Source: an uncultured virus (IMG/VR IMGVR_UViG_3300022555_000042) (taxonomy: Duplodnaviria > Heunggongvirae > Uroviricota > Caudoviricetes). Taken from it: a stretch of DNA of 20,000 nucleotides. The notes beneath the pieces are model-generated. The model made no database searches. It had not been told where the DNA came from and was given only the letters and a program-made list of their open reading frames with translations. Both the position numbers and the translations under genes were made by a program. Where the stretch lies: the IMG/VR virus record IMGVR_UViG_3300022555_000042; one strand, written 5' to 3'. Of this stretch, positions 1,541 to 15,328 are shown one piece after another (position 1 is the stretch's first letter; every line of letters begins with the position of its first letter).

Positions 1541-1568
1541 ACACATTAGATTTGATCGGAATACATTC

Positions 1569-1649
1569 GCTCTCATGGCGGAATTGGCATACGCAGCGGT
1601 TTCAGATACCGTGCCGAATGGCTTGCAGGTTCGACTCCTGCTGAGAGCA
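1569..1649 (+). tRNA. tRNA-Leu(CAG)
   Basis: Acceptor GCTCTCA/TGAGAGC, anticodon arm GCGGT-TTCAGAT-ACCGT, variable arm, GGTTCGACTCC. Confidence 0.95.
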
Positions 1650-2039: not shown

Positions 2040-2113
2040 GCACTCGTAGCACAATTGGATAGTGCTTCTGACTACGAATCAGAGGGTTGCAGGTTCGAGT
2101 CCTGCCGAGTGCA
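2040..2113 (+). tRNA. tRNA-Arg(ACG)
   Basis: Acceptor GCACTCG/CGAGTGC, anticodon arm TCTGA-CTACGAA-TCAGA, GGTTCGAGTCC. Confidence 0.96.
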
Positions 2114-2534
2114 TTTGTGAAGGTTTGTGGAACACATACTCAAAGTTCTCAGCGTAGTCGTGGGCGTGGATGCGGTCCCGCACCAAGAGTGGGTCCCGCA
2201 GAGCCTTTAGAAACTCTTCCTTCCCCAGGCCGACGATGTGGGCGGTGACATCCCAGAAGCTGTCGTCGCCGATGTTCCAGAATCCGTGAGGCTGGCCGAT
2301 GATCTCGGCGTAGGCGTCTAGGGCACCTTGGAGGGTTCGCCGCTTGGTTTTGGCGAAGGCTTCTAGGCGGACAAGTTCTTCTTCGGGGACCCGTTGCTGG
2401 AGGGCGATAGCCAATTCGGTTCGGTCGGCTCCCTTGCACCATCCGATTTCCTTGATGAGATTCCACCAGTAGGCATCCCCACGGGCGTAGGATGGTTGAG
2501 GCACTGGGACAGTTGGAACCGCTATTTCTGACAT
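2079..2534 (-). CDS. DUF4240-like protein
   Basis: YWWNLI...DDSFWDVTAHIVGLGKEEFLKALRDP resembles the DUF4240 pattern as recalled; last codons overlap the tRNA-Arg antisense. Confidence 0.65.
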   Translation of the reverse strand: MSEIAVPTVPVPQPSYARGDAYWWNLIKEIGWCKGADRTELAIALQQRVPEEELVRLEAFAKTKRRTLQGALDAYAEIIGQPHGFWNIGDDSFWDVTAHIVGLGKEEFLKALRDPLLVRDRIHAHDYAENFEYVFHKPSQMHSAGLEPATL

Positions 2535-2535
2535 G

Positions 2536-2865
2536 TTATTCTCCGCCCAATAAGATGATTGCTACGGTGGCGAGTACAAGACCCAACCACTGATACCATT
2601 CTAATTTTTCTCTAAAGACTACAATGCCGATAATGGCGGTGGTGAGAACCGCCAGTACGGACCAGACGATGCCCACCACGGCCAGCTTGTTATATTCTTT
2701 AATGGCAGGAAGCCATAGGACCGAGCAGGCCACGTAGCAGACTACTGCGAGAGGGATGTAATACCATTTGGAGTTATTGGCCCACAATTTGGAGCAGATT
2801 TCGCCGCACGCGAAGGCTGCGGCTGAGGAGAGCAACCACCAGAACCAATGGTATTGTAGGATCAT
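2536..2865 (-). CDS. SMR/DMT-family small membrane transporter (EmrE-like)
   Basis: ~109 aa, four hydrophobic helices, Glu in TM1, C-terminal GIVVFREKL..QWLGLVLA motif. Confidence 0.8.
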   Translation of the reverse strand: MILQYHWFWWLLSSAAAFACGEICSKLWANNSKWYYIPLAVVCYVACSVLWLPAIKEYNKLAVVGIVWSVLAVLTTAIIGIVVFREKLEWYQWLGLVLATVAIILLGGE

Positions 2866-2917
2866 GCGATATTTACCGCCAGGTGCGCCGCGCCACACAA
2901 CACTAATACAGTGAGAT

Positions 2918-3229
2918 ATGGATAGTCGTCACTACATCCTCAAAGGCCACAAGCCCAAAGCTGTAGGTTTGTACGAATGGGCCGAGTGGTTTGAGACCCA
3001 CAAAGTGGAACGAGTGGTGGCTCAGCACACGATCAAGGGGCACTCCGTTTCAACGGTATTCTTGGGCTTAGATCACAATTTCTCGAAGGGTGGCCCTCCC
3101 ATCCTTTTTGAGACGATGATCTTTGGTCCGAAGGGTGAGGAAATGTGTAAGCGGTATGCAACTTGGGAGGAGGCTGAGGAGGGGCATGCTGGTTTGGTGA
3201 TGGCTTTAGAAGGGTGTGATCCAGAGTGA
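2918..3229 (+). CDS. conserved hypothetical phage protein
   Basis: 103 aa with VSTVFLGLDHNF...PILFETMIF motif seen in phage hypotheticals. Confidence 0.8.
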   Translation: MDSRHYILKGHKPKAVGLYEWAEWFETHKVERVVAQHTIKGHSVSTVFLGLDHNFSKGGPPILFETMIFGPKGEEMCKRYATWEEAEEGHAGLVMALEGCDPE

Positions 3230-3230
3230 T

Positions 3231-3254
3231 GCCGCCGTAGCTCAATGGCAGAGC
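3231..3254 (+). pseudogene. 5' fragment of an ancestral tRNA-Thr (acceptor 5' strand plus D arm)
   Basis: GCCGCCGTAGCTCAATGGCAGAGC, 23/24 identical to 3261-3284 but with the canonical D-loop GG. Confidence 0.85.
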
Positions 3255-3260
3255 CGGACT

Positions 3261-3332
3261 GCCGCCGTAGCTCAATAGCAGAGCTCCCGTCTTGTACACG
3301 GGTGGTTGTAGGTGCGAATCCTACCGGTGGCT
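3261..3332 (+). tRNA. tRNA-Thr(TGT), non-canonical A18/G55
   Basis: Acceptor GCCGCCG/CGGTGGC, anticodon arm CCCGT-CTTGTAC-ACGGG, T arm GTAGG-TGCGAAT-CCTAC. Confidence 0.9.
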
Positions 3333-3368
3333 ATTCTATGCAAACATAATGTTTTAATCGAGGGTTCG

Positions 3369-4106
3369 ATGAGTTATGTTAGCACACAACGATGGCGAGT
3401 TAAGGCAAAACAGTGGCTCGTCAAGTACAGTGGGGGTAAATGTCAGTCATGTGGATATGATAAATATCACGGCAACTTTGCATGGCACCATTTGCGAGAT
3501 AAAAAGGCAGCCATGGCTAGGTTGATTAATAAGTGCTCATCGTGGAATGATATTATTGAGGAGGCGGATAAATGCGTGATGGTCTGTCATAATTGTCATG
3601 GTGAGATTCACGCTGGTATTAGGGCATGTCCAGAAGTTAATGTTGATAATCGCAAGGTGGCGATGGCAGCCATTGGGCCTCAGAGACCAATCCCAACTAG
3701 CCATAAATTCACATATTGCCACGAGTGCGGGAGGCCAACCAAGGGCAATAAATTCTGTTCATGGAAATGTCAATGCCAGTATGCCAATAAAATAAAGTGG
3801 CCTGATGACCTCGCTGGCTTGGTTGCGAACGAGACAATAGAAGTAGTCGCCGATAAGATGGGCATATCACCAGTGCTTGTTAACAAACGATTGCACGCCA
3901 AGAGGTGCAGGTGTGGCAAGCTAATGAGGCGTGGGAATACATGCCGCGAGTGTGCCCTTATTAAACGGGAGAAAATTACTTGGCCAGATAATCTCCCAGA
4001 GCTAATAAAGAATTCATCGTATCGGGCTGTCGCAATATCATTGGGTGTTTCAGACAAAGCTGTCGCAAAAAGGATAAAGAACCATTATGGGACGTTACAC
4101 GTATGA
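3369..4106 (+). CDS. HNH homing-type endonuclease with two C-terminal Zn-finger/HTH modules
   Basis: GGKCQSCGYD...WHH...KCVMVCHNCHGEIH; two repeats of Cys cluster + WPDxLxxL...HTH; track start 3312 lies in the tRNA so the ATG at 3369 is used. Confidence 0.88.
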   Translation: MSYVSTQRWRVKAKQWLVKYSGGKCQSCGYDKYHGNFAWHHLRDKKAAMARLINKCSSWNDIIEEADKCVMVCHNCHGEIHAGIRACPEVNVDNRKVAMAAIGPQRPIPTSHKFTYCHECGRPTKGNKFCSWKCQCQYANKIKWPDDLAGLVANETIEVVADKMGISPVLVNKRLHAKRCRCGKLMRRGNTCRECALIKREKITWPDNLPELIKNSSYRAVAISLGVSDKAVAKRIKNHYGTLHV

Positions 4107-4509
4107 GGTTCTAGGGATTGTGGGACTGCGGCCTATGCGTCCGCCGACCATTTTTGATTTAATGACTGACGCAATAACCACAGAACTTGATCGTGAATGC
4201 TTTGCGGGGATCGGTACATTGCCAGACGCATCAGACAAATGGCCGAATAAGTGGTATGTTTCTGATGCTGTGGAATCGCCAGGCAGTAAGCCGGTGTTCC
4301 ATGTCCGGGTTAAACCTGCCACCTGGGCATTTAGTAGAACAGGAACTAGAGAGTTTTTCTACGATGGCAATGGGGTCTATGAGGGTCTATGGGAGCACGG
4401 AATGCTGGTGACTAATCGGTCGTATGTAAAAGTATTCAAGAGCACCCGGAAAGAACTAAAGGAAGCTGTTGATGCTTGGACAAGAGAGCAGAATCTTTCC
4501 CTCGAATGA
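4087..4509 (+). CDS. hypothetical protein
   Basis: 140-aa ORF; true start may be internal. Confidence 0.6.
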   Translation: MGRYTYEVLGIVGLRPMRPPTIFDLMTDAITTELDRECFAGIGTLPDASDKWPNKWYVSDAVESPGSKPVFHVRVKPATWAFSRTGTREFFYDGNGVYEGLWEHGMLVTNRSYVKVFKSTRKELKEAVDAWTREQNLSLE

Positions 4510-4714
4510 ACTCCACTTCGAACTGGGCCAAAAATATCATCGGATGATCCGGGGGAGTATAGACAAGGCCACTTTTGTGGTGATCGTCTCTGAGAAGTTA
4601 CACTCGCCTATTTTAGAGGTGTATACTGTCACTGGGGATGAGTTGCTGGCAAAGTTCGGAGCTGCGATTTGGGGGCGGGCAGAGGTTTTGGCTTACCCCA
4701 ATGGGTTTAAGTAA
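4469..4714 (+). CDS. hypothetical protein (start uncertain)
   Basis: Fills the gap before tRNA-Leu(CAA); no motif. Confidence 0.4.
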   Translation: MMLGQESRIFPSNELHFELGQKYHRMIRGSIDKATFVVIVSEKLHSPILEVYTVTGDELLAKFGAAIWGRAEVLAYPNGFK

Positions 4715-4721
4715 AAATATC

Positions 4722-4803
4722 GCGGGTATGGTGGAATTGGCAGACACGCTAGTCTCAAGAACTAGTGGCGCAAGCCGTGCAGGTTCGACTCCTGCTATCC
4801 GCA
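4722..4803 (+). tRNA. tRNA-Leu(CAA)
   Basis: Acceptor GCGGGTA/TATCCGC, anticodon arm CTAGT-CTCAAGA-ACTAG, variable arm GGC-GCAA-GCC. Confidence 0.96.
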
Positions 4804-4844
4804 TTCCGGGTTATGCGCTGGCCACGAGCGTGATCGTGGCATTC

Positions 4845-4919
4845 GACCTCGTAGCTCAGTTGGATTAGAGCATCTGCCTTCTAAGCAGAGGGTCGTGGGT
4901 TCGAGCCCCACCGGGGTCA
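4845..4919 (+). tRNA. tRNA-Arg(TCT)
   Basis: Acceptor GACCTCG/CGGGGTC, anticodon arm TCTGC-CTTCTAA-GCAGA, GGTTCGAGCCC. Confidence 0.96.
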
Positions 4920-4921
4920 TT

Positions 4922-5209
4922 ATGAAATCAAAGCCCTGTATCAATGGATTTAGCAACCACCTTTACGAGGAGGGAAGGATATGTAAACGATGCGGAACGA
5001 CTAAGCGCGTTTACAAATCTTCATCTAAATGTAATCGCGCCCGTGCTGGGTATGGTCTTGATTATTATGTGCAAGGGTACTACGCATTTGGTAATGGGTT
5101 GAAGCGTGAGGCCAACCCACACCAGGGGGAACGGCGTGAGCAATGGTTTTTAGGGTGGGATGAGGGGAAAGCGGATACGCCCAGGCGTTGGGAAATTAAG
5201 CACCCGTAG
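4922..5209 (+). CDS. small protein with CxxC and Rmf/CrpP-like C-terminal motif
   Basis: YVQGYYAFGNG...NPH....REQWFLGWDEG resembles the ribosome modulation factor fold pattern; stop TAG lies in the tRNA remnant. Confidence 0.6.
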   Translation: MKSKPCINGFSNHLYEEGRICKRCGTTKRVYKSSSKCNRARAGYGLDYYVQGYYAFGNGLKREANPHQGERREQWFLGWDEGKADTPRRWEIKHP

Positions 5210-5227
5210 TCCAATTGGATAGGGCAC
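5200..5227 (+). pseudogene. 5' half of interrupted tRNA-Arg(TCG)
   Basis: GCACCCG-TA-GTCC-AATTGGATA-GGGC-A; GCACCCG pairs perfectly with CGGGTGC at 5972-5978. Confidence 0.85.
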
Positions 5228-5290
5228 ACTTTTCTGGTTCTATCTTAGTGTAGCCCAATTGGATAGAGTACTTAGTGTCAAATATAGTAT

Positions 5291-5872
5291 ATGAAAACAT
5301 GCAAATGTGGCGCTACGTTTCCGAATTGGATGACAATAGATGGCAAGCTCCATAATTTGGGTAGTCGAGTTCGGTGCCTTGATTGTCAGCCATTCAAGTC
5401 GCCCCGCCCCACTTGCTCTGTCGAGAATTTTAGGGCTAGGAAACGTAATAATACCCGCAATTGGCGCGATAAATTTGTAGAGGCGCATGGCGCTGACCCA
5501 GCTAATTTAATCCGAAGTAGGAATCGGCGAGCAATCCTTTGTTTAATTGGGTATAGATGCCAAAAGTGTGGCTATGATAAAACCATAACCAACATTGTGT
5601 TCCATCATCTTAAAGATAAGTCGTTTGAGTTGGGAAATAAAGCGTTTGGGCACCAATTCAAGAAGATTATTGCGGAACTTAGGAAATGTGTCGCTTATTG
5701 CCACAATTGTCATGGTGAATATCACCGTGGCCTAATTGACGATAAGATAGTTATAGATCATAATTGCCAATTAAATAAGGCTATTGATACAATATGTAAT
5801 TGCGGCGATTGGCTTGTGGTTCTTGATAAATTAAAACTTCCGCGAGATTACACTCTCCCTATGCGTCCCTGA
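5291..5872 (+). CDS. HNH homing-type endonuclease
   Basis: N-terminal CxC...CxxC; YRCQKCGYDK...VFHH...KCVAYCHNCHGEYH; same subfamily as 3369..4106. Confidence 0.88.
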   Translation: MKTCKCGATFPNWMTIDGKLHNLGSRVRCLDCQPFKSPRPTCSVENFRARKRNNTRNWRDKFVEAHGADPANLIRSRNRRAILCLIGYRCQKCGYDKTITNIVFHHLKDKSFELGNKAFGHQFKKIIAELRKCVAYCHNCHGEYHRGLIDDKIVIDHNCQLNKAIDTICNCGDWLVVLDKLKLPRDYTLPMRP

Positions 5873-5938
5873 TGCTCAATTGGATGGGCACCACTTTCCG
5901 AAGGTGGTATTTTGTGGGTTCGAATCCCACCAGGGACA
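5865..5938 (+). tRNA. tRNA-Arg(CCG), divergent (A8)
   Basis: Acceptor GTCCCTG/CAGGGAC, anticodon arm CCACT-TTCCGAA-GGTGG, T arm GTGGG-TTCGAAT-CCCAC. Confidence 0.9.
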
Positions 5939-5979
5939 TTCGAAGCTGGGTTGTGCGAGTTCGAGTCTCGCCGGGTGCA
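5939..5979 (+). pseudogene. 3' half of interrupted tRNA-Arg(TCG)
   Basis: T-TCG-AA-GCTGG-GTTGT-GCGAG-TTCGAGT-CTCGC-CGGGTGC-A: anticodon, 3' anticodon strand, complete T arm, acceptor 3' strand. Confidence 0.88.
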
Positions 5980-6219
5980 TTAGACAGTGGGTGAGGGGGC
6001 GGACATTTGGTGGTATTCTTCGTGACGTTTGCGATACCCCTCCGCTCCACCATTCTTAATATAGTATTTAAGGAGGATTTCTGGGTCTGAGACGTTGTAT
6101 CCCATGGCTTGGGAGCAGTACCACCGGTTGACCTCTCCGAGAGCTTCTTCGACTTGCTGCTGTAAGTGGTTTTGAAGTTCTGGCGGCGTCATATTCTCGT
6201 ACAATACGGCGATCTTCAT
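5980..6219 (-). CDS. hypothetical protein
   Basis: MKIAVLYE... 79 aa; stop abuts the tRNA remnant. Confidence 0.65.
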   Translation of the reverse strand: MKIAVLYENMTPPELQNHLQQQVEEALGEVNRWYCSQAMGYNVSDPEILLKYYIKNGGAEGYRKRHEEYHQMSAPSPTV

Positions 6220-6333
6220 ACCGGACTTTTGAATTATGTGGTATTTGCCGCTGCTGCCGCTGGACAGCACGGGCGGCCAGCAGCGAGGTAAGCCCACCGA
6301 TGAATAAATATAAGTAGGAGTTGTTGACTAATC

Positions 6334-6417
6334 GCTCGGGTGGCGAAATTGGCAGACGCGCAAGCTTGAGGTGCTTGTGGCCGCAAGGTCTTGCAGGTTC
6401 GACTCCTGTCCCGAGCA
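6334..6417 (+). tRNA. tRNA-Leu(GAG)
   Basis: Acceptor GCTCGGG/CCCGAGC, anticodon arm CAAGC-TTGAGGT-GCTTG, variable arm. Confidence 0.96.
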
Positions 6418-6431
6418 TTAAGGAGGTTATC

Positions 6432-7055
6432 ATGACTGCCGTATTATCAGAGCCTGTTCTGATCCTGAACCGCAACTATGTGGCGCAAGATTTCGTCACG
6501 GCGCGGAAGGCTGTCAACCTGCTCATGCAGGGTCGGGCCGAGGCCCTAGATATCGAAGGCGAAGAGCCTAATCGCAAGTACTTCACCTACGATTTCGAGT
6601 CCTGGAAGGAGCTGAGTGAGTTCAAGGCTGAGTTCGAGCGGGAGCAGCACATCTGGCTCCGGACCGTCAACCGGCACATCGCAGTCCCCTCCATTCTGCG
6701 GCTGACCCACTATGGGGAGTATCGGCGTCGGAAGGTTAAGCTCAACCGGCACAACCTCTTTGCGCGGGATGGCTTCCGGTGCCAGTACTGCGGCAAGAAG
6801 TTTAAGTCTTCGGATTTGACTTTGGACCACGTTATCCCCAAGAGCCGGGGCGGCAAGCTGGAGTGGCACAACCTGGTTTGTGCATGTGTAGCTTGCAATA
6901 CGCGCAAGTCCGCTCGGACGCCTCGGGAAGCCGGGATGCGGTTGGTGCGGGAGCCGAAGGCTCCGCCTTACCAGTTCCCCATCCCCAGAGTGCAGCGCGC
7001 CTCTTGGGCACATTTTGTGGATGTGGCTTACTGGCTTACGACTCTCCAAGAGTAA
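6432..7055 (+). CDS. HNH endonuclease (McrA-like / COG1403-type, VLILNxxY family)
   Basis: AAGGAGG RBS; VLILNRNY...RHNLFARDGFRCQYCG...LTLDHVIPKSRGG...WHNLVCACVACNTRK. Confidence 0.93.
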   Translation: MTAVLSEPVLILNRNYVAQDFVTARKAVNLLMQGRAEALDIEGEEPNRKYFTYDFESWKELSEFKAEFEREQHIWLRTVNRHIAVPSILRLTHYGEYRRRKVKLNRHNLFARDGFRCQYCGKKFKSSDLTLDHVIPKSRGGKLEWHNLVCACVACNTRKSARTPREAGMRLVREPKAPPYQFPIPRVQRASWAHFVDVAYWLTTLQE

Positions 7056-7091
7056 TTTGTTGATGTGGCATACTGGAATCAAATATAGAGC

Positions 7092-8003
7092 ATGCCTAAA
7101 ATCATAAAGAGTATAGCTTGGGTGGCCTCCGAAGTTACTCGGAGGCCACTCAACGCCATAGCGGAGGAAATAGGTGTTTCAGATGTTGGTTTAGGTCAGT
7201 TCTGTAAACGCCACAATATCCCAGTTTTCAATCCAAGTTACTTCCGCAGACTTGACTCCAAATCTGATGCTGGTGACTGTCCGCAATGCGGCACTAAGCG
7301 CAAAGTCCGTAAGTATATTAATAACTTGTGTGAAAGAGGATTTACCTATTGCAGAATATGTCCAAATTGTCACGCCAATCAGCAGCGTGAGGGGGTTCGC
7401 GGTCGTCGTAAAATAGAGGGCCAGTGCGTGGGGTGCGGTGGTGAGCCACAACCGGGACTATATTATTGTTCAAAATGCCACAATGTCTCAGTTAGCAATA
7501 AAAGGCTGAGAGCCAGATTGAGGAAAGATAAATTAGTTAAGATAATGGGTGGAAAGTGCAGCGAATGCGGTGGGCAGTTCCACAACGCCGCGTATGATTT
7601 TCATCACTTGTCTGATAAATTTAAAAGTATGAGTCACATGTTGGCTGGCAACTCTTGGGAAGCCACGCTGCTTGAGTCCAAGAAATGCCGCCTACTGTGT
7701 GCTGTTTGTCATAGGCTAGGGCATAAGTACCGGCTAATTGGTGATGTTCCATCTGAGTCTGGATTGTATAAGCGAGCATTTGTTCAGAACCGCAAGAAGC
7801 AGCCATGCCAGGACTGTGGCCTCCAATTTCACCCCACAGCGATGGAATTTGACCACCGTGACAGTCTGACCAAGTCATTTAATATATCTAATGTGGCGTG
7901 CCGTAGGTATACCATTGGCGAGTTGACTGCCGAAATAATAAAATGCGACTTAGTGTGTGCCAACTGTCACCGTGTTAGAACTTTCAGCCGGTTTGGCCGC
8001 TAG
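7092..8003 (+). CDS. endonuclease with N-terminal HTH, Zn fingers and two tandem HNH domains
   Basis: GGKCSECG..YDFHH..KCRLLCAVCHRLGH and PCQDCG..MEFDH..KCDLVCANCHRVRT. Confidence 0.88.
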   Translation: MPKIIKSIAWVASEVTRRPLNAIAEEIGVSDVGLGQFCKRHNIPVFNPSYFRRLDSKSDAGDCPQCGTKRKVRKYINNLCERGFTYCRICPNCHANQQREGVRGRRKIEGQCVGCGGEPQPGLYYCSKCHNVSVSNKRLRARLRKDKLVKIMGGKCSECGGQFHNAAYDFHHLSDKFKSMSHMLAGNSWEATLLESKKCRLLCAVCHRLGHKYRLIGDVPSESGLYKRAFVQNRKKQPCQDCGLQFHPTAMEFDHRDSLTKSFNISNVACRRYTIGELTAEIIKCDLVCANCHRVRTFSRFGR

Positions 8004-8079
8004 TTTCACCGTGGGCATTGCTGTATCCAGAGTGGGTCACACGCCGCAAATATACTTATATTGAAATTCATGGGTTGAT

Positions 8080-11000
8080 ATGTCAAATATCCACATAGTT
8101 GGCTTTAAAGAAGTAACCCTAGTGGGCGGGGTGGTCAAAGACCTCACTTCTTTAACTTTTGGGGAAAGGCTCATAGCCACGCGGGAAACGCGCGTGGACG
8201 CAGTCGGATACCCCACCCTAACAAGATATCTCCAGGACGAAGCGGCCAGTGATTTTGTGTTGGCCAAATTCAACACTTCTGCCATAATTACTAAGTTGGC
8301 AGTATCACCCCTGCCTCCTGTCGTTCCCGCCAAGGCCACCACGCCCACCTTTATCTATGACGCCACCACAGTAACGGCCCACGCCACGGCGACGGGCTCT
8401 ACTTCCATGCTGTACAGCTATGATGCTGGCGTAACGTGGGGTGTGGCAACAGCAACCAAGGCGTACGGCACCACCGGCAGTTGCTTGGCTAAGGGGCACA
8501 ATACTGCTGGAGATGGACCGGTCAGTGAAGCGGGGACATGGCTGCAAGTTCCCGCCAAGGCCACTACGCCCACTGTCGTAGCCCTCTTAGATGGCGATAA
8601 GTACGTCTACACTCTGGATGCGACCAGTGTAGGGTCCACCAGTGTGGTCTACGACATCAACGATAGTGGCACGTACACCGCCGCGAAGAAGTTTGCAGGC
8701 GGGGCGGTGAGTGATGGCACAGGATTACATACGCTGTATCCAAACTTGGAGGGATACTACACCATCACTGGCATCTATGGTGGCAAGAAGGTGCTGACAG
8801 GTACACACGGAGTGTTGTGGTGGAATGTTTCCAGTTGGTGGGTTTCGGACGCGGCGGGTAGTGATGTGTGGGCAGCAAATCAAGAGAGCGATTACGGGGC
8901 TGCCGGTCACGGACGCGCATGTTATCCAGCTTCGGAAGTGGAAGGCATTCCGCAAGGGTACATGGATGTGAGTCCCGGTGGTCCCGCTGACTGCATCACC
9001 CTCCTGCTGAACGGTGAGCATACTGCTGCGACTGCGTTTGTGGCGAAGGCTCGCGGTGTCAATGCTGCTGGCAATGGGCCAATAAGCGATCCTCTGACGC
9101 TGTCATGGCTTAGCGATCCTCTAGCTCCCAGTAAGCCGAGTGCCCCGGTGATTGATCCCCTTACCGATTGGTCTAGCGCTAACTGGAATGGTTCAGCGTG
9201 GACCTATGTGATGATGGTGGGGACAATCGACTACGCCGACAGCATGGGAGGGGAGTCGTGGGGATGTCCTCTGGCAAGTGTTGGTAGCTACTTCATAGAC
9301 AGTGGATCTCCCATCGCTCCTAGTGCTGATTTGAGCGGCATCGTTTGCTACGGCGTCAGCGCCATTTACGGGCGTGGCCAACCGTCCGATCCGTCGGACG
9401 CCTCCCAGATCGCAATGGGCAGCCCCCTACCTAATGCTGGTGCCCCCGCTCAGATTCCAAACTTAGATTCTATTAATTGGAACCAAGACTTTACCTGTTG
9501 GGAGATAAATATCTCCTGGTCAGACTATTTTGACGACACCGAAATCTATCGCGAAACACTTTTAGACAGCACAGTTTTCAATACATTTAATTCTTATGTT
9601 TCTGGATATGCCCCCAATGCTCCATATTCAATTTATATAACACACTCTAATGCCTATGGCCCAACTACCTCAGCAGGTACAATTGATGGCACTCTTCCAG
9701 ATACCCCGGCCGGTCCGTATCTCTGGACAAACGCCCTGGCCGATAACGATGGTCTGAATCCGGGCAACTACACGGTCGGAGGCGTGCCGGCGAGCACGAT
9801 CTTTGGGCCTGGCGACACCGTGCAATGGGATTACACGGTGGCTGGCGGAGTTGCTACGAACGCTCCGGTATTCTCGGCCTCCGCAGCATGCGGCAACGCC
9901 GTGATCAACTACACGCTGCTCGACGACTCGGTTCCATCCGGGAGTGCAGCTAGCTTCGCGGCCCTGAGCGCAGGGAACTGCACCGTCAACGCCATGGTCG
10001 CCGGGGCGGTCACAGCGGCTCAATGGTTCACGACGATTCCACCGGCGACGATCACGGGCTCGATCCATGTGACGGCCTCGTCCACGGCCTCGGCGTTTGG
10101 AACCAGTGCGATAGACGTGGTGGGCTGCCAGCTGGCCAGCGGTTTCACCGTCGCCGGCGACGCGTACATCTCCGGCGGAGTGCTGGACACCGCGACCGGC
10201 GGGCTGATCTTCCCCGTGCTGGCGTATGGTGCCGTGGCGGGCGACGTGTACGTAACGGGCGACGTGTTCTACCTGTACAGCACCGCGGTAGGCGGGGTAT
10301 TCCACATCACCGGCAACCTGTCGCGGGTGGATGTGACGAACTGCGGGCTCTCTGTGGCCCAGGTAGACTCGCTATTGGCGGCCGCGGATGCGGGCGGAGT
10401 GTACGGGGGCGCGATCGCATTCACCGGCAACAACGGCTACTCCGACGAGACTTCCTACACTACGCTGGTTGCGCGCGGCTGGACCATCGACGTACCGGAT
10501 AACGCTCCGAACAATCTCCCCGGTCCGGCCACGCTCACCCTGGTCTCGGCGACCTGGAACGGAACGGTCTGGCTGTATCAGCTATCCGCCGTGGCCGACC
10601 CCGGAGCGGGCACGATCACCTCCTACACATGGTATGAGGGCACGATCAGTGGGGATGTCGCCGCGCTCATCGCGGTCGGACCCGGCTATGCTTTCAGTTT
10701 CACCGCCACGGCCACCAGCGAATACGGTGAAGGGCCTGTGGGGGAACCGTTGGTGGGGACGGCGGACCCCGCTCCAACTTTCAGAGGAACGAGCTACATC
10801 ACACACCCGGCACTAACTTTAGGATATGGACTGACTGTCAGTGCCCGAATTTCGTCTGTCTATGATGGGGGAGTCCAGATGATGGCCGAAGCCGACTATT
10901 CTGGGACGCCAACTGGACAGCCCCAGGTGTTTTTGCAATATGACGGTAGATGGCATATTGGGTGTATTGGTTTTGCTGACTTAGACACTCTTGCTTCAAT

Positions 11001-11346
11001 AGATCCTGGAGTGGAGCATTGTTATACGGCTCGTTTTTCTGATGATGGGCTGGGGACTGTCTCTCTAGATTTCTTTGTGGATGGAGTACTGCAGTCAGGC
11101 ACTACTGCATCTGGCTCGATCGCTGGTAATGTACTTTCAACCTTCGCAGCGCGGGGGGCGGGGAGTATTGGCCTAGTTGGCGAGGCCAATAACTACGCAA
11201 TCTGGAGTCGAGCCCTGCTTGACGTAGAGATTGCGGCGGTTGCTGGCGGAGGCTACATTATTCCTGATATCTTCTTACATTGGCCGGATTGCAGTACTGC
11301 GGTTGATACTTCAGGTAATACCAACGATGGGACGCCACACTTGTAA
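8080..11346 (+). CDS. large virion-type adhesin/decoration protein with FN3-like repeats and C-terminal LamG/ConA-like domain
   Basis: 1088 aa, rich in T/S/G/A; modules begin PAKATTPT or PSKPSAP and end AxGxNxAGxGPxS; C-terminus FFVDGV...AIWSRAL..EI...DTSGNTNDGT. Confidence 0.75.
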   Translation: MSNIHIVGFKEVTLVGGVVKDLTSLTFGERLIATRETRVDAVGYPTLTRYLQDEAASDFVLAKFNTSAIITKLAVSPLPPVVPAKATTPTFIYDATTVTAHATATGSTSMLYSYDAGVTWGVATATKAYGTTGSCLAKGHNTAGDGPVSEAGTWLQVPAKATTPTVVALLDGDKYVYTLDATSVGSTSVVYDINDSGTYTAAKKFAGGAVSDGTGLHTLYPNLEGYYTITGIYGGKKVLTGTHGVLWWNVSSWWVSDAAGSDVWAANQESDYGAAGHGRACYPASEVEGIPQGYMDVSPGGPADCITLLLNGEHTAATAFVAKARGVNAAGNGPISDPLTLSWLSDPLAPSKPSAPVIDPLTDWSSANWNGSAWTYVMMVGTIDYADSMGGESWGCPLASVGSYFIDSGSPIAPSADLSGIVCYGVSAIYGRGQPSDPSDASQIAMGSPLPNAGAPAQIPNLDSINWNQDFTCWEINISWSDYFDDTEIYRETLLDSTVFNTFNSYVSGYAPNAPYSIYITHSNAYGPTTSAGTIDGTLPDTPAGPYLWTNALADNDGLNPGNYTVGGVPASTIFGPGDTVQWDYTVAGGVATNAPVFSASAACGNAVINYTLLDDSVPSGSAASFAALSAGNCTVNAMVAGAVTAAQWFTTIPPATITGSIHVTASSTASAFGTSAIDVVGCQLASGFTVAGDAYISGGVLDTATGGLIFPVLAYGAVAGDVYVTGDVFYLYSTAVGGVFHITGNLSRVDVTNCGLSVAQVDSLLAAADAGGVYGGAIAFTGNNGYSDETSYTTLVARGWTIDVPDNAPNNLPGPATLTLVSATWNGTVWLYQLSAVADPGAGTITSYTWYEGTISGDVAALIAVGPGYAFSFTATATSEYGEGPVGEPLVGTADPAPTFRGTSYITHPALTLGYGLTVSARISSVYDGGVQMMAEADYSGTPTGQPQVFLQYDGRWHIGCIGFADLDTLASIDPGVEHCYTARFSDDGLGTVSLDFFVDGVLQSGTTASGSIAGNVLSTFAARGAGSIGLVGEANNYAIWSRALLDVEIAAVAGGGYIIPDIFLHWPDCSTAVDTSGNTNDGTPHL

Positions 11347-11371
11347 GGAATGGTGACGGGAAATATAAAGC

Positions 11372-11863
11372 ATGGCTATACCAGAAAAAGCAACGACCCC
11401 AGCCCTAGCTGCCTCGGTGTGGTGCGAGTCTGGTACACCCATCACTCCCAGTTTACCAGATAAGAATGCTCAATGGATGCTCACCTTCTCGTCGGTGGCG
11501 GATGACGCTAAAGTGTGTAATCGGTGGGGCCACAATCGTTCTGCGGTATTAAGTAACGCTTTAGCTGCGACTCCTAATCCAAATGATTCTAGAGCATACC
11601 TAATTAACCTACTAAAGGGGGATTATCCAGCAGCAGCATTGATTGCTTTTAACCAAGCCAAAGCTGCACCTAATGATGTAGTCTATAAGCAGTGGATTAT
11701 GTATTTGAGCGGTGTAGTCAGGGCTAGTGACCAATGTTATAATGGTAGAGCAGTTGATGTAATTAAATGGGCTAATGGTGATGCGGTCACCAACCCCATT
11801 CCTGACCTTCTACCTGCTTTACAGTTAAAAGCCAAACCGACTAAACCTATTAAGACAAAGTAA
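11372..11863 (+). CDS. hypothetical protein
   Basis: 163 aa; begins IPEKATTP like the modules of the upstream gene. Confidence 0.65.
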   Translation: MAIPEKATTPALAASVWCESGTPITPSLPDKNAQWMLTFSSVADDAKVCNRWGHNRSAVLSNALAATPNPNDSRAYLINLLKGDYPAAALIAFNQAKAAPNDVVYKQWIMYLSGVVRASDQCYNGRAVDVIKWANGDAVTNPIPDLLPALQLKAKPTKPIKTK

Positions 11864-11891
11864 TCAAAAATACTCTTTTAGGAGCTATTCA

Positions 11892-12320
11892 ATGGCGACC
11901 AGACCAGTAACCACTCTTTGCGGCGTAGACATGACAGGCAAGACTGTGCTCCAGGTTGTACAGTTTGCCGACATCAATCTAGAAACTCTTTCAGTTGGGG
12001 CAACACAGCAGCTGATGGCTATTTATACTAGACTGCGTGAAGTAGTCTTTGGCCCAACACTTCTGACTACTGGCAATGCCCCCACTCTGGCTCAACTTCG
12101 CGATGGTGTTGATAACGGCTCTGGTGTACTCCAGGGCGGCATTGAAGATGCTAAGAAGCTAGCCTATGATGGCTTAAAGGCGTATCTTACTGGCACTAAA
12201 CAGCTGTTGCTATCGGTTGTTCCTGCCAAGGTGGCAGTAGCTAAGCCGGATGGCTCCGCAGCCCAGGTTGACAATCCGGCCTACCTGGCCTTGTTTAACG
12301 ATCCAGTACCGCTGGCCTAA
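11892..12320 (+). CDS. hypothetical protein
   Basis: 142 aa with AGGAG RBS. Confidence 0.75.
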   Translation: MATRPVTTLCGVDMTGKTVLQVVQFADINLETLSVGATQQLMAIYTRLREVVFGPTLLTTGNAPTLAQLRDGVDNGSGVLQGGIEDAKKLAYDGLKAYLTGTKQLLLSVVPAKVAVAKPDGSAAQVDNPAYLALFNDPVPLA

Positions 12321-12361
12321 GTCCCGCATGGCACCAGGCAAACCTTTAATAGAGGTGCCAT

Positions 12362-12661
12362 ATGTACCCAGATCCTAAATTAATATCCGAAACCATGGCG
12401 TTACTAGGCGTCGCCGACGAAGCCAAGTCTAGCGATGCCATTCTCCTACGCCAAGCTATTATCGCCGAGCTGGATGCCGCTAGCCTCTATGAACAAATGG
12501 CGGCCAGCACCAAGAACGAGAAGATCAAAAAGGTCTTCTTGGACGTGGCCAAGGAAGAGAAAGTACATGTGGGGGAATTCGAGGCGCTCTTGGGGGAGGC
12601 AGACAAAGAGCACGACAAAGCCATGGAGGATGGCACCTCGGAAGTCGCAAAAGTGAAGTGA
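12362..12661 (+). CDS. ferritin-like / rubrerythrin-family protein (two-helix half-ferritin type)
   Basis: LRQAIIAELDAASLYEQMA...VFLDVAKEEKVHVGEFEALL: ExxA..Y and EExxH diiron motifs; GAGG RBS. Confidence 0.88.
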   Translation: MYPDPKLISETMALLGVADEAKSSDAILLRQAIIAELDAASLYEQMAASTKNEKIKKVFLDVAKEEKVHVGEFEALLGEADKEHDKAMEDGTSEVAKVK

Positions 12662-12683
12662 ATACCGGTCAGATTAAGTATAT

Positions 12684-12755
12684 TCAGGGTGGGGAATTTT
12701 GAGATCCCGGCCTCTCGGTTCCGGACCGAGCGCTCTGCCTCTGAGCTACACCCTG
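12684..12755 (-). tRNA. tRNA-Pro(CGG) with aberrant T arm
   Basis: Reverse complement CAGGGTG-TA-GCTC-AGAGGCA-GAGC-G-CTCGG-TCCGGAA-CCGAG-AGGCC-GGGAT-CTCAAAA-TTCCC-CACCCTG-A. Confidence 0.85.
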
Positions 12756-13085
12756 GGTTATATGGTGAAATAGTCCCTTCTTCATTGGGATTCCAAGTAC
12801 TATGCACCGCTTTGAACTGCTACCACAATCGTGCCGGTAAATCTGGGCGGTGGGGTTCGCACCCACACGAATCTCCGGGTCCCAAACCCGGCGACCTGCT
12901 AAATGGTCCTCGCCCAGGTGGTCCCCGGCGGTGCACGAGTTGGCACTCGTGGCCTCACCTGCCGGGGTATTTTTGTGTTTCTCCACGTACCCGCTGTGTT
13001 CCTGACAGCGGGCTCCCTCTGTGGCTGACCAAGTGGCTACTCCCTTCTTTCCGCACACTTCGCATTTCAGATCGTCCAGCTTCAC
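12684..13085 (-). CDS. small Zn-finger-like protein whose frame runs through both tRNA-Pro genes
   Basis: GTG start overlaps the upstream stop; N-terminal CEVC...C..H; C-terminal part of doubtful function. Confidence 0.45.
   Translation of the reverse strand: MKLDDLKCEVCGKKGVATWSATEGARCQEHSGYVEKHKNTPAGEATSANSCTAGDHLGEDHLAGRRVWDPEIRVGANPTAQIYRHDCGSSSKRCIVLGIPMKKGLFHHITQGVAQRQSARSGTERPGSQNSPP
12842..12917 (-). tRNA. tRNA-Pro(TGG), non-canonical A8 and A18/G55
   Basis: Reverse complement CTGGGCG-AG-GACC-ATTTAGCA-GGTC-G-CCGGG-TTTGGGA-CCCGG-AGATTCGT-GTGGG-TGCGAAC-CCCAC-CGCCCAG-A. Confidence 0.85.
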
Positions 13086-13525
13086 TGCTTCTCCAAAAAC
13101 TTCCCAATGAATTCTTTAATCTGCTGAACAACCCGGTGGCTGAACTGCATGGGATCAGTAGGACTATGTAAAGTCCAGCCTTCGCCCTCACCACCGACAC
13201 CACCGATCATGGAGGTCTCGGCGTTCATTGAGTAGCGCTCTCCATCCTTAGTGAGGCATCCAAAAGTGCCTCCATCTTTGAACTGCACCTCCAGGTATAA
13301 CCAGATCTGGTTTCCGGGGCGATCGCTGGTCTCGTCGGTGAGGAGGACGGCTTTCTGATTGTGGCGTTGGCGTGGGTCGTTGGGGTCGATGGGGGTTAGG
13401 ACCTTGACGATGGAGGCATTAGTTACCTCACCATCTATGATTCCTTCGCGTACGATGCTGACCATCTCGGTGAACATCTGGACGGGGTTGCCGCTTCTAA
13501 TCCATGCCATCTGTCTTCGTTCCAT
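13082..13525 (-). CDS. hypothetical protein
   Basis: 147-aa ORF in the minus-strand gene run. Confidence 0.75.
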   Translation of the reverse strand: MERRQMAWIRSGNPVQMFTEMVSIVREGIIDGEVTNASIVKVLTPIDPNDPRQRHNQKAVLLTDETSDRPGNQIWLYLEVQFKDGGTFGCLTKDGERYSMNAETSMIGGVGGEGEGWTLHSPTDPMQFSHRVVQQIKEFIGKFLEKQ

Positions 13526-13531
13526 AATGAT

Positions 13532-14506
13532 CTAGGCCTTAGTCTTCAGGTGTTTCTTGACGGCCTTGTCTGTCACCCCCAATAAGATACCAATTGCTCT
13601 CATTGAGCTCTGCGCAACCAGCTCGGCCAAATTGCTTGGCCATTTCGTTTTCCGCTTATAGAATGCAGAGCATACTACGCTGCAGTACTTTTTCCTTGCT
13701 GCTTCCCTCTGGTTCTGAAACTCGAATTGCTTTCCGCATTTACACATGCCGTGCCCAAAATTGGTTCTTGTCTTTGTTTTTGGTTGCCTGAACCACAATT
13801 TTTTCAGCCTATCTTGCCATTGGGCGGCCCCGGATTCGAACCGGGGATCTACTGGATGTAGGCCAGTCGGGTTAGCCGCTTCCCTAGCCGCCCGGATTAT
13901 GTGTTTCACTTTGTCTTGGTCCCATGCGATTTCACTCTCCCATATGTCAATTATTATCCACCCATGCTTCTCGAAGTAAATTTTAGCATTTCGATCTTGA
14001 ATCCTATTGTGTTTTTGTGGTTTCGTTAGGTCATCTTGATTTGGATAAAGCAGTGGGTTGGCGTGCCAGTAGTCACCATTTATCCTAAATATGGTTTTAT
14101 GCGTGAGGTCAACGAAGTCGCATAAATACCTTTGGATTGGGTATTGGTAAAATATATCCGCATTGACATCATCGCTTTGTTTGATTATCTCATGCATGCC
14201 GGGCGGAAACTTGACGCCGACGCCGCATTCATTCAGTAATATTCTGAACATTCGCTCTGGTTTTGTCCAAAATTTCCTGCTTGATATCGCCGATTTAATT
14301 GCGTTCGCGCTGCATTGCTCCGATGTCATATTTGCGACTTTGCATATGCCCTTGGAGACCGTCAATCTCCCAGCATCTGATTGTGATCGATGGCCTTTTA
14401 CCAATTTAGATATTCTGGCATTACTAGCGCCGGTCTTTAATGACACTTCTTTATAAGTCAGGCCGCCGTCATACAACTCAATTATTTTATCATCCATCTC
14501 GCTCAT
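13532..14506 (-). CDS. Vsr/DUF559-like endonuclease with N-terminal HTH and C-terminal Zn-finger/HTH, containing an in-frame tRNA-Val
   Basis: WTKPE...QYPIQRYLCDF...INGDYWHANP...QD....FEKHGWIIIDIWESEI; C-terminal KYCSVVC..KWPSNLAELV..LGVTDKAVKK homologous to 3369..4106; GGAG RBS. Confidence 0.88.
   Translation of the reverse strand: MSEMDDKIIELYDGGLTYKEVSLKTGASNARISKLVKGHRSQSDAGRLTVSKGICKVANMTSEQCSANAIKSAISSRKFWTKPERMFRILLNECGVGVKFPPGMHEIIKQSDDVNADIFYQYPIQRYLCDFVDLTHKTIFRINGDYWHANPLLYPNQDDLTKPQKHNRIQDRNAKIYFEKHGWIIIDIWESEIAWDQDKVKHIIRAAREAANPTGLHPVDPRFESGAAQWQDRLKKLWFRQPKTKTRTNFGHGMCKCGKQFEFQNQREAARKKYCSVVCSAFYKRKTKWPSNLAELVAQSSMRAIGILLGVTDKAVKKHLKTKA
13821..13893 (-). tRNA. tRNA-Val(TAC), divergent (C33, 3-bp D stem), nested in CDS
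   Basis: Reverse complement GGGCGGC-TA-GGG-AAGCGGCTAA-CCC-G-ACTGG-CCTACAT-CCAGT-AGATC-CCCGG-TTCGAAT-CCGGG-GCCGCCC-A; acceptor, anticodon and T stems perfectly paired. Confidence 0.88.
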
Positions 14507-14507
14507 A

Positions 14508-14553
14508 GAACCATCTCCAAAGCCATTAGATTATGTTTGGTTGGAGATGGTTC
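14508..14553 (-). promoter_or_regulatory. RBS-sequestering hairpin with putative promoter in the loop
   Basis: Perfect 13-bp inverted repeat GAACCATCTCCAA/TTGGAGATGGTTC covering the GGAG of the endonuclease gene; loop holds CAAACATAAT. Confidence 0.75.
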
Positions 14554-14557
14554 GACT

Positions 14558-14568
14558 GCTAACCGCCC
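14558..14568 (-). pseudogene. probable 5' remnant of ancestral tRNA-Val
   Basis: Reverse complement GGGCGGTTAGC is a typical tRNA-Val 5' end and 8/9 identical to the nested tRNA start; only 11 nt. Confidence 0.55.
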
Positions 14569-14726
14569 TTGAACCAACGAGCCAATTTCTGCCGTAGTGT
14601 TTCGCGTCCCCGCTCGCATCCGCACCAATTCTTGGGTTTCAAATGGCCGGCAGAGACCACTTTCATGCATGGCTGACTAAGGCCGTGTTCATCAATTCTG
14701 TTTTTGCCGCAATAATCACAGATCAT
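14559..14726 (-). CDS. 55-aa Cys-rich protein (not in ORF track)
   Basis: MICDYCGKNRIDEHGLSQPCMKVVSAGHLKPKNWCGCERGRETLRQKLARWFKGG*; ATGA overlap with upstream gene. Confidence 0.65.
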   Translation of the reverse strand: MICDYCGKNRIDEHGLSQPCMKVVSAGHLKPKNWCGCERGRETLRQKLARWFKGG

Positions 14727-14968
14727 GTCCAGCTTCCTACGTGATTTAGCACCGAGAGCAATATGGTTACTAGTACCACTACAGCTGTTAGCAGTGCACC
14801 AATGACGATTATCCCGCAGCCGAGGATGGGAGAGACCATGTCGTATTGACCTTGTTGTTTCCCATGGCGTCTGGCCAGGTTGGTGGTGATTACTACTCCG
14901 AGCACTATTTCGAGGAGGTAAACGACCAGCATCGTTGGAATGTACATGCCCATGCGTCTCGCCTTCAT
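14723..14968 (-). CDS. small membrane protein (2 TM)
   Basis: Two hydrophobic segments; start uncertain (14968/14953/14947). Confidence 0.65.
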   Translation of the reverse strand: MKARRMGMYIPTMLVVYLLEIVLGVVITTNLARRHGKQQGQYDMVSPILGCGIIVIGALLTAVVVLVTILLSVLNHVGSWT

Positions 14969-14983
14969 GCTTTCAAATACTAA

Positions 14984-14999
14984 CGCGCCGAGCAGGACT
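14984..14999 (-). pseudogene. 3' remnant of ancestral tRNA (Trp-like, G73)
   Basis: Reverse complement AGT-CCTGC-TCGGCGC-G; TCGGCGC pairs with GCGCCGG at 15100-15106. Confidence 0.75.
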
Positions 15000-15001
15000 A
15001 A

Positions 15002-15074
15002 CACGGTAGGAGAGGCTCGAACTCTCAAATGCCGGTTTTGGAGACCGGTGCTGTGCCGCTACAGCTTCTACCGT
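15002..15074 (-). tRNA. tRNA-Trp(CCA), divergent (A8/U14)
   Basis: Reverse complement ACGGTAG-AA-GCTG-TAGCGGCA-CAGC-A-CCGGT-CTCCAAA-ACCGG-CATTT-GAGAG-TTCGAGC-CTCTC-CTACCGT-G. Confidence 0.92.
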
Positions 15075-15083
15075 ATATCATTA

Positions 15084-15106
15084 TCTGCCAATTGAGCTAC
15101 CGGCGC
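15084..15106 (-). pseudogene. 5' remnant of ancestral tRNA (Trp-like)
   Basis: Reverse complement GCGCCGG-TA-GCTC-AATTGGCA-GA: canonical acceptor strand plus D arm. Confidence 0.8.
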
Positions 15107-15328
15107 TTATAATCTGCGACCCTTGTGGGAATCGTCGATTTCTTCGATTTTGGTTTCATCTTCCAGGACTGGTTCCTTGGGGACTTCGGTGAGGTACCCA
15201 CTCTCGGCCATTTCCCGTTTGATGATGCCGATGCATTTGGGGCAGTAGGCCATGTGGGGCATGGCGTTGCCGTTGCAGCGGCGGCATTTCATGATCTTGG
15301 AAGCCTTCTTTTTGGGTTTCGGTTTCAT
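15107..15328 (-). CDS. small CxxC-CxxC protein
   Basis: CRRC...CPKC; GGAGG RBS. Confidence 0.7.
   Translation of the reverse strand: MKPKPKKKASKIMKCRRCNGNAMPHMAYCPKCIGIIKREMAESGYLTEVPKEPVLEDETKIEEIDDSHKGRRL

Follow-up and report, generated by a model that had tools for sequence, protein, structure and literature searches.

The 20,000-nucleotide stretch of DNA analysed here (IMG/VR record IMGVR_UViG_3300022555_000042, hereafter the window) comes from an uncultured freshwater phage and lies within its tRNA array, which is rich in homing-endonuclease genes (HEGs). The window holds 12 tRNA genes, 10 recognised by ARAGORN and two more by Rfam (a Pro(CGG)-like gene at 12684-12755(-) and a cut tRNA-Leu at 1-71), together with six endonuclease genes of several families. 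Four loci, called Thr, Arg, Val and Trp after the intact tRNA gene that each contains, are the subject of this work (Table 1). A preliminary description of the window had proposed that at each of them an ancestral tRNA gene was broken and a divergent tRNA for the same amino acid supplied, usually with an endonuclease. All four new tRNAs were recovered by ARAGORN and Rfam at the places given there, and dead tRNA stubs are real at three of the four loci (Thr, Arg and Trp).

Table 1. Features of the Arg, Thr, Trp and Val loci, followed by the other endonuclease genes of the window
Feature	Coordinates	Strand	Basis
5' part (positions 1-27) of broken tRNA-Arg(UCG) gene	5200-5227	+	acceptor strand and intact D arm
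Second, different tRNA 5' stub	5243-5279	+	28.2 bits, above 99th percentile of controls
HNH homing endonuclease gene	5291-5872	+	PHROG phrog_2255, E 1e-17
Intact tRNA-Arg(CCG), A at position 8	5865-5938	+	ARAGORN, Rfam 49 bits
3' part (positions 33-73) of broken tRNA-Arg(UCG) gene	5939-5979	+	30.2 bits against independent tRNAs
5' stub of tRNA-Thr-like gene (positions 1 to about 30)	3231-3259	+	similarity to tRNA-Thr
Intact tRNA-Thr(UGU)	3261-3332	+	ARAGORN, Rfam 63.9 bits
HNH homing endonuclease gene	3369-4106	+	PHROG HNH families, E down to 6e-18
5' stub (positions 1-23) of tRNA, Trp locus	15084-15106	-	34.2 bits (17/17), above all 1500 controls
Intact tRNA-Trp(CCA), A8 and T14	15002-15074	-	ARAGORN, Rfam 51.2 bits
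3' stub, Trp locus: T-stem end, acceptor 3' strand, discriminator G	14984-14998	-	pairing with 5' stub
Homing endonuclease gene (DUF559-like), 324 aa	13532-14506	-	AlphaFold2, Foldseek, alignment A2
tRNA-Val(UAC), C33, in frame in nuclease open reading frame (residues 205-229)	13821-13893	-	ARAGORN, Rfam 58.9 bits
Perfect 13-bp hairpin, 3' arm over GGAG	14502-14556	-	read from sequence
PD-(D/E)XK + helix-turn-helix endonuclease gene	992-1576	-	Pfam PDDEXK_5, E 6.6e-7
HNH_5 endonuclease gene	6432-7055	+	Pfam HNH_5, E 6e-19
Double-HNH gene	7092-8003	+	PHROG phrog_3106, E 1e-38, two matched stretches

The score of a stub is that of its best match against 603 tRNAs from other loci; the controls are 1500 random windows, whose maximum was 28.2 bits. 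Because a BLAST scan of the whole region yields chance matches at 28-32 bits, the significance of a stub rests on its register, context and pairing as well as on its score. A loose scan for D-arm motifs was uninformative (7 orphan matches against about 5 expected), and a covariance model of tRNA 5' halves (R1), which had no base pairs and 0.37 bits per position, was not used.

At the Arg locus, a tRNA-Arg(UCG) gene is interrupted between positions 27 and 33 by 711 bp that comprise a second stub, an HNH gene and an intact tRNA-Arg(CCG), five nucleotides (positions 28-32) being lost. The first 10 nt of the 5' part also provide the stop codon of the open reading frame (ORF) at 4895-5209, and its D arm matches that of tRNA-Arg(ACG) at 11 of 11 positions. 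The 3' part starts on the base directly after the last base of tRNA-Arg(CCG). It opens with positions 33-38 of the anticodon loop, where the anticodon reads TCG, and continues with the 3' half of the anticodon stem, the variable loop and a perfect T arm ahead of the 3' acceptor strand. This strand (5972-5978) and its 5' counterpart (5200-5206) form seven Watson-Crick pairs out of seven. Among the 23 T-arm-like hairpins listed in the 33.6 kb made up by the window and the adjoining 14 kb (L001), which carry 22 tRNAs, 20 lie inside tRNAs and two are orphans with one loop mismatch; the 3' part of the Arg gene holds the only orphan perfect T arm. The pairing and this T arm bear out the claim that two tRNA halves enclose an HNH gene and a new tRNA-Arg. 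The stop codon of the HNH gene falls within tRNA-Arg(CCG). This coupled pair of endonuclease and intact tRNA is fitted exactly into a broken gene that is likewise a tRNA-Arg. Such an arrangement is hard to explain otherwise than by insertion of a foreign HNH + tRNA-Arg segment into a break at positions 27-33 of the resident tRNA-Arg(UCG). The second stub lies just upstream of the HNH start and matches positions 8-24 of tRNA-Arg(ACG) at 16 of 17 positions; the inserted segment would thus already have borne the stub of an earlier event.

The stub of the Thr locus begins 1 nt past the stop codon of the ORF at 2918-3229. Its first 24 nt (3231-3254) are identical at 23 positions to positions 1-24 of the adjacent tRNA-Thr (E 1.7e-6), and none of the next five nucleotides matches. 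This fall from 23/24 to 0/5 indicates a junction after position 24 rather than a uniformly diverged copy. Against the 603 tRNAs the stub scores 32.2 bits, more than any of the 1500 controls, and its top two matches are tRNA-Thr. The intact tRNA-Thr(UGU), which has no GG in the D loop and a T loop reading TGCGAAT (the 18/55 swap discussed below), ends 36 nt upstream of the HNH gene, so the order remnant, new tRNA, HNH gene was correctly described. The locus fits a one-sided illegitimate join of tRNA-Thr and HNH to a gene broken near position 25-30.

The near identity of the Thr stub and its neighbour is also what a local duplication would give. In a local rearrangement, the chief rival to the import of a cassette, HEG-induced breaks would be repaired within the same genome, by duplication and collapse or by template switching, and nothing would be imported or replaced. 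There is a precedent: according to the passages available of PMC13096335, SegB amplifies a 718-bp unit of tRNA-Tyr and segB in tandem, with a truncated copy at the junction. A comparable structure was found at another locus, L084:6380-7144, where an exact 76-bp direct repeat, made of roughly the final 40 nt of an HNH gene and positions 1-37 of a tRNA-Tyr, flanks a 199-codon HNH gene on both sides and resembles the T6 junction left by SegB-driven tandem amplification. For the Thr stub by itself, a duplication of the SegB type is possible. As a general account, local rearrangement is unlikely: the drop in identity past position 24 marks a junction of two alleles, the Arg and Trp stubs are strongly unlike the tRNAs that they enclose, and no stub of the window carries part of a HEG, unlike the duplication junctions of L084 and T6.

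The HNH protein of the Thr locus consists of an HNH domain, a zinc ribbon and a helix-turn-helix (HTH). Its 28 homologues in alignment A1 (43-58% identity) have the same layout; the zinc-ribbon + HTH module occurs once in all of them and twice in tandem in the window protein. The ORFs of 7 of the 28 extend into the T arm of a flanking tRNA, at the N or the C end; the core regions, taken as comparison, gave 6 T-arm matches over far more positions. Of 77 viral loci of distant relatives, 33 have a tRNA within about 1.5 kb. When metagenomes were scanned with A1, the matches listed were relatives 26-51% identical and included no member of the close family. In the 127.6 kb lying within 700 bp of an HNH match there are 11 tRNA fragments of 15 nt or more, against 17 in 444.3 kb elsewhere; their density near HNH genes is about twice that elsewhere. 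At one such locus (L117), a 23-nt tRNA 5' stub stands directly after a stop codon, 80 nt upstream of an HNH gene of the A1 type.

At the Trp locus, two stubs bracket a complete tRNA-Trp, from which they are separated by 8 nt on the 5' side and 3 nt on the 3' side. The 5' stub begins directly past the stop codon of the ORF at 15107-15328. The 3' stub is not significant by similarity alone; it pairs with the 5' stub at seven of seven positions (one G-T), which is expected by chance about once in 70 within 20 nt after a tRNA. The 5' stub is most similar to tRNAs for Ile, Asn and His. Hence, of the statement that remnants of a tRNA-Trp enclose a new tRNA-Trp, the stubs around an intact tRNA-Trp stand, while the Trp isotype of the remnants does not. 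A nuclease may have acted in trans or been lost, or another mechanism may have produced this bracketing.

The perfect pairing of the Arg acceptor halves might also point to a tRNA that is split but functional or that contains an intron; the exons, joined after transcription, would then be the halves at Arg or the stubs at Trp. Group I introns in bacterial tRNA anticodon loops are described in the passages available of PMC3984707. This is very improbable, since five nucleotides of the anticodon stem (positions 28-32) are absent at Arg and 34 nt are absent from the Trp stubs, since the supposed intron would hold a complete tRNA, and since a search against the Rfam intron families, with E values up to 10 admitted, gave no match in the window. 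The missing Rfam match and the loss of positions 28-32 led to the rejection of a group I intron in the anticodon loop.

Ordinary decay, by which the stubs would be deletion remnants of redundant tRNAs and owe their HEG and same-isotype neighbours to the density of the array, has more to be said for it: where 33.6 kb hold 22 tRNAs and many HEGs, no stub can be without such neighbours, and the upstream region also contains isolated tRNA-like pieces and a decayed HEG C-terminus. It is nevertheless improbable. The Arg halves are parted by an insertion that ends exactly at the end of a tRNA, with 5 nt lost, which is not a deletion; the Trp-locus stubs bracket a complete tRNA; and fragments are about twice as dense near HNH genes. 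The end points of the stubs, moreover, concentrate at tRNA positions 23-30, and a preferred region of breakage may lie behind this.

tRNA arrays are rich in repeats and easily misassembled, and the preliminary description had allowed that the remnants might be assembly artefacts, that is, chimeric joins of similar tRNA genes. This is scarcely credible: independent contigs from two studies (X1 records 1, 3 and 5; X2 records 9 and 14) cross all four loci with 0-10 differences, and the viral record G001 carries 100% of the sampled words of the window.

At the Val locus the relation between nuclease and tRNA is closer still. The tRNA-Val(UAC) gene lies in frame within a nuclease ORF, and the encoded protein comprises an N-terminal HTH, a nuclease domain of the Vsr/I-Bth0305I fold, a linker encoded by tRNA-Val, a zinc ribbon and an HTH. 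Its C-terminal zinc-ribbon/HTH module is shared with the HNH protein of the Thr locus (42% identity). The AlphaFold2 model (mean pLDDT, the predicted local distance difference test, 88.2) is confident for the HTH and nuclease (residues 1-209) and for the C-terminal zinc ribbon and HTH; values below 50 are confined to residues 214-225, in the tRNA-coded linker. The top Foldseek match of the nuclease domain is I-Bth0305I (3r3p; TMt 0.81-0.82, probability 1.00), followed by Vsr (1cw0, 1vsr). By sequence the match to Pfam DUF559 is weak (E 0.0012, 19.1 bits, below the 20.6 cut-off). Alignment A2 has invariant D, W and H columns within a GD[YF]WH motif.

A word-based search returned 30 homologues of the Val nuclease, most of them full length and 32-52% identical by the search itself or 31-54% by the alignment, and their linkers in A2 resemble translated tRNA, in differing reading frames. 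One relative, L158 (identical to L159; 43% protein identity), has a tRNA-Val(UAC) nested in its open frame, beginning one base after the equivalent residue of the window protein. Nesting is thus observed in DNA for two lineages only; for the other homologues it was read from the linker peptide, by asking whether that peptide can be back-translated to an anticodon arm with TAC, a variable loop of 4-5 nt and a canonical T arm. In A2, 21 of the 31 rows pass, each at one site in the linker, against 0 of 51,566 tests elsewhere. A profile search of 1.84 billion representatives gave 60 Val-nuclease proteins at E up to 1e-30; among 41 further representatives, 14 pass in the linker, with a single match outside it in 78,814 tests, and 13 have, as judged by eye, a long and homologous linker whose T loop breaks the strict rule. 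The two reading-frame classes form separate clades. In the 78 viral and 80 genomic loci that match the nuclease domain only, no tRNA was found at that place.

Several facts count against so general a nesting. Reading the linkers by eye, the remaining 14 of the 41 further representatives have short ones with no nested tRNA; four A2 rows (P0041, P0054, P0064 and P0071) also lack it; the nested tRNA of L158 reaches only 30.8 bits with Rfam; and a search for full-length proteins favours continuous ORFs, so that broken forms are under-sampled. Two of the short-linker proteins, P0041 and P0064, sit inside tRNA-bearing clades (support 96/88 or better), a position that suggests secondary loss of the nested tRNA. 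In-frame nesting of tRNA-Val in the interdomain linker is a trait of the family, and it is the strongest result of this study. Alongside selC in selB, the one nested tRNA so far known in a bacterial ORF, the Val family would be only the second kind of nested tRNA gene found described in bacteria or phages.

Directly before the start codon of the Val nuclease stands the hairpin listed in Table 1. The homologue in L158 is preceded by a similar one, with T-loop-like GTCGAACC/GGTTCGAC arms. The hairpin may mask translation, as hairpins reportedly do for T4 endonuclease genes. Abutting it are the 11 nt (14558-14568(-)) that had been taken for the 5' remnant of the ancestral tRNA-Val. With E 0.42 and 18.3 bits, the median of the controls, this match is at chance level, and the candidate was rejected; the new tRNA inside the nuclease ORF is the part of the Val claim that stood.

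Other variants of the family were also seen. P0075 and P0088 have R or S, not L, at the anticodon residue of the linker, residues compatible with a nested tRNA-Val with a GAC or CAC anticodon. Upstream of the window, in a 630-nt gap after a tRNA-Tyr, a fragment at L001:3688-3818(-) (about -3470 to -3340 in window coordinates) gives in translation the HTH motif found at the C-terminus of the Val-nuclease family and is followed by a D-arm-like tRNA piece; it looks like the debris of an older nuclease/tRNA unit.

The new tRNAs were said to deviate at normally invariant positions, in contrast to the canonical remnants and to the Leu, Arg(ACG) and Arg(TCT) genes, which lack remnants. All four do: Thr lacks G18-G19 and has G55, Arg(CCG) has A8, Val has C33 and a 3-bp D stem, and Trp has A8 with T14. 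The deviation, however, is not confined to them, being found in at least 4 of 17 others, namely the stub-less Pro(UGG), Cys, Gln(UUG) and the Pro(CGG)-like gene. One change recurs: tRNA-Thr(UGU), tRNA-Pro(UGG) at 12842-12917(-) and the tRNA-Cys(GCA) of L001 all lack G18-G19 and have G at position 55. In the comparison set of 603 tRNAs, a T loop that starts with TG occurs 11 times, in all 11 together with absence of the D-loop GG, which 35 of the 603 lack overall. Judged by this covariation, the 18/55 change is a compensated swap of a tertiary pair that recurs in phage tRNA arrays. In the passages available of PMC2330249, SegB recognises the T-loop motif GGTTCRANTCC and cuts within tRNA genes. 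The swap alters this motif, which would fit an allele resistant to cleavage.

That endonucleases and intact tRNAs are coupled, as had been claimed, is seen at three loci (the HNH stop inside tRNA-Arg(CCG), the 36 nt between tRNA-Thr and its HNH gene, tRNA-Val inside the nuclease ORF) and finds support elsewhere, two of the nuclease families being linked to tRNAs at other loci. On balance, free-standing HEGs that move in physical linkage with a tRNA gene appear to have invaded the array more than once. The mechanism may be pictured as follows. The nucleases would cut tRNA genes, as SegB does, and the break would be repaired by copying the HEG with its linked tRNA from a donor. Where flank homology is lacking, the join would be illegitimate and the old gene would be left as dead stubs, the linked tRNA keeping the amino acid covered. 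In the Val unit, a single transcript would be both tRNA precursor and nuclease mRNA; if one transcript does serve both, processing by RNase P/Z would limit nuclease synthesis. The break-and-replace reading is well supported at Arg, moderately at Thr and weakly at Trp. Taken as the mechanism of the preliminary description, it accounts for Arg better than any other reading at hand and would be plausible for Thr.

Several observations weigh against this reading. No empty-site joint was found in the contigs of four runs, which hold the occupied form only and would miss rare alleles. Searches of viral contigs and GenBank phages, and pattern searches, found no relative of the phage, with or without a HEG. 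Since neither an empty allele nor such a relative was found, I infer mobility, and likewise the target specificity of the nucleases and the resistance of the new alleles. Anticodons of the old and new Arg tRNAs differ (UCG and CCG), and the replacement is therefore not like for like. The Arg HNH protein has no near relatives among 5.8 billion proteins (itself excepted), which leaves no family in which to follow its link to tRNA; distant tblastn matches occur in large phages. At Trp, no nuclease gene lies between the stubs, whose isotype cannot be assigned to Trp. The resemblance of the Thr stub to its neighbour, the deviant tRNAs that have no stub and the chance-level Val remnant belong here as well. 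Three joints listed in the contig comparison were rejected, their sides of 21-22 nt being tRNA-to-tRNA matches from other organisms.

Integrative elements that target tRNA genes bring along a copy of the tRNA 3' end. The units described here are like them in using a tRNA gene as insertion site and in keeping its function through sequence borne by the element. They differ in that the leftovers are mainly 5' stubs and that a complete tRNA is supplied; an integrase-type element was rejected, there being no integrase among the 33 ORFs of the window and the duplicated parts being tRNA 5' ends.

Homing endonucleases of phage tRNA clusters have been known since SegB of T4, and a 2026 paper reported that they can remodel tRNA loci, defeating tRNA-cutting defences. 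The window suggests a further step, in which nuclease and tRNA gene move as one unit and the old gene is left as a scar; movement of this kind would explain the shuffling and exchange of tRNA arrays in large phages. Like the units of the window, SegB (T4/T6) is encoded by a free-standing gene among phage tRNA genes, is inherited with neighbouring tRNA genes and makes rearranged tRNA/HEG junctions, as far as the passages available of PMC2330249 and PMC13096335 go; those passages contain neither dead stubs bracketing an imported tRNA nor a tRNA inside a nuclease ORF. SegB is a GIY-YIG enzyme, whereas the nucleases of the window, here known from sequence or model, are HNH, PD-(D/E)XK and Vsr-fold. 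No description was found in the literature of tRNA stubs around HEG + tRNA units or of a homing endonuclease with a tRNA nested in it; the search did not extend to the gene neighbourhoods in the supplement of PMC13096335, which could contain such cases.

I-Bth0305I, whose fold the modelled catalytic domain of the Val nuclease shares, is likewise a multi-domain phage homing endonuclease. In the part available of PMC3239194 it is encoded in a recA group I intron, whereas the Val nuclease gene is free-standing, lies in a tRNA array and has a tRNA gene within it, and its product bears HTH or zinc-ribbon modules at both termini. The closest likeness to the nesting itself is selC in selB of Alphaproteobacteria (Mukai 2021, PMC8124441, as far as its available passages go): there too a whole sense tRNA lies in an ORF, is conserved and has remnant forms, and tRNA processing is proposed to limit synthesis of the full-length protein. 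selC, however, lies in a C-terminal extension of a housekeeping factor that uses that very tRNA, whereas tRNA-Val lies between two domains of a selfish nuclease, is read in two frame classes and probably serves that nuclease as cargo or target. The Val family offers a compact, testable system in which one transcript would be shared by tRNA processing and translation.

A more far-reaching proposal is that several unrelated HEG families have evolved into tRNA-carrying cassettes that break a resident tRNA and supply an allele of their own, maybe cleavage-resistant, the most derived form wrapping its ORF around the tRNA. This is tentative, and I hold it for less probable than repeated colonisation by coupled HEGs. 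If true, such cassettes would be a main engine of the turnover and horizontal spread of tRNA arrays in large phages; they would also account for compensated oddities such as the 18/55 swap, which alters the motif read by SegB-type nucleases. In the most derived form, the cargo tRNA would be inseparable from the nuclease parasite, and tRNA processing would throttle nuclease expression.

The window matches the 44.9-kb record G001, on which 19 tRNA matches were found. One of its proteins is also encoded on a contig of 215,405 bases; the genome therefore measures at least 215 kb and the phage is large. Window DNA was found in freshwater and lake metagenomes from three studies, and in no RNA run. 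No relative of the phage was detected among viral contigs with the protein 4087-4509, among viral contigs or GenBank phages with a 1088-aa protein, or among viral contigs with the Thr stub and the 3' stub of Arg as exact patterns; megablast of the whole window gave a stray tRNA match only, and tblastn of the Val nuclease against GenBank phages gave nothing.

The endonuclease genes of the window are free-standing between other genes on the ORF map, with no intron or intein, and their nuclease domains belong to recognised homing-endonuclease families (HNH by PHROG/Pfam, I-Bth0305I-like by fold). The units under study are of the HNH or Vsr-fold type. A GIY-YIG HEG occurs only upstream, in L001, as one of at least three further endonuclease genes there. 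Of the genes outside the four loci, that at 992-1576(-) overlaps tRNA-Leu(CAG), on the opposite strand, by 8 nt, and the HNH_5 gene begins 15 nt past tRNA-Leu(GAG).

Small genes unrelated to nucleases are also found within the tRNA array: one resembling ribosome modulation factor (4895-5209), one resembling rubrerythrin (12362-12661) and, on the opposite strand, DUF4240 and EamA-like ORFs (2079-2898(-)). The Pro(CGG)-like gene, 86 nt from tRNA-Pro(UGG), combines a Pro(CGG) anticodon arm with an aberrant T loop; it scores 49.1 bits with Rfam and was missed by ARAGORN. In L001, tRNA-Gln(UUG) (-730 to -642 in window coordinates, 89 nt) and tRNA-Cys (-1531 to -1448, 84 nt) each have a long extra arm, which is unusual for these isotypes.

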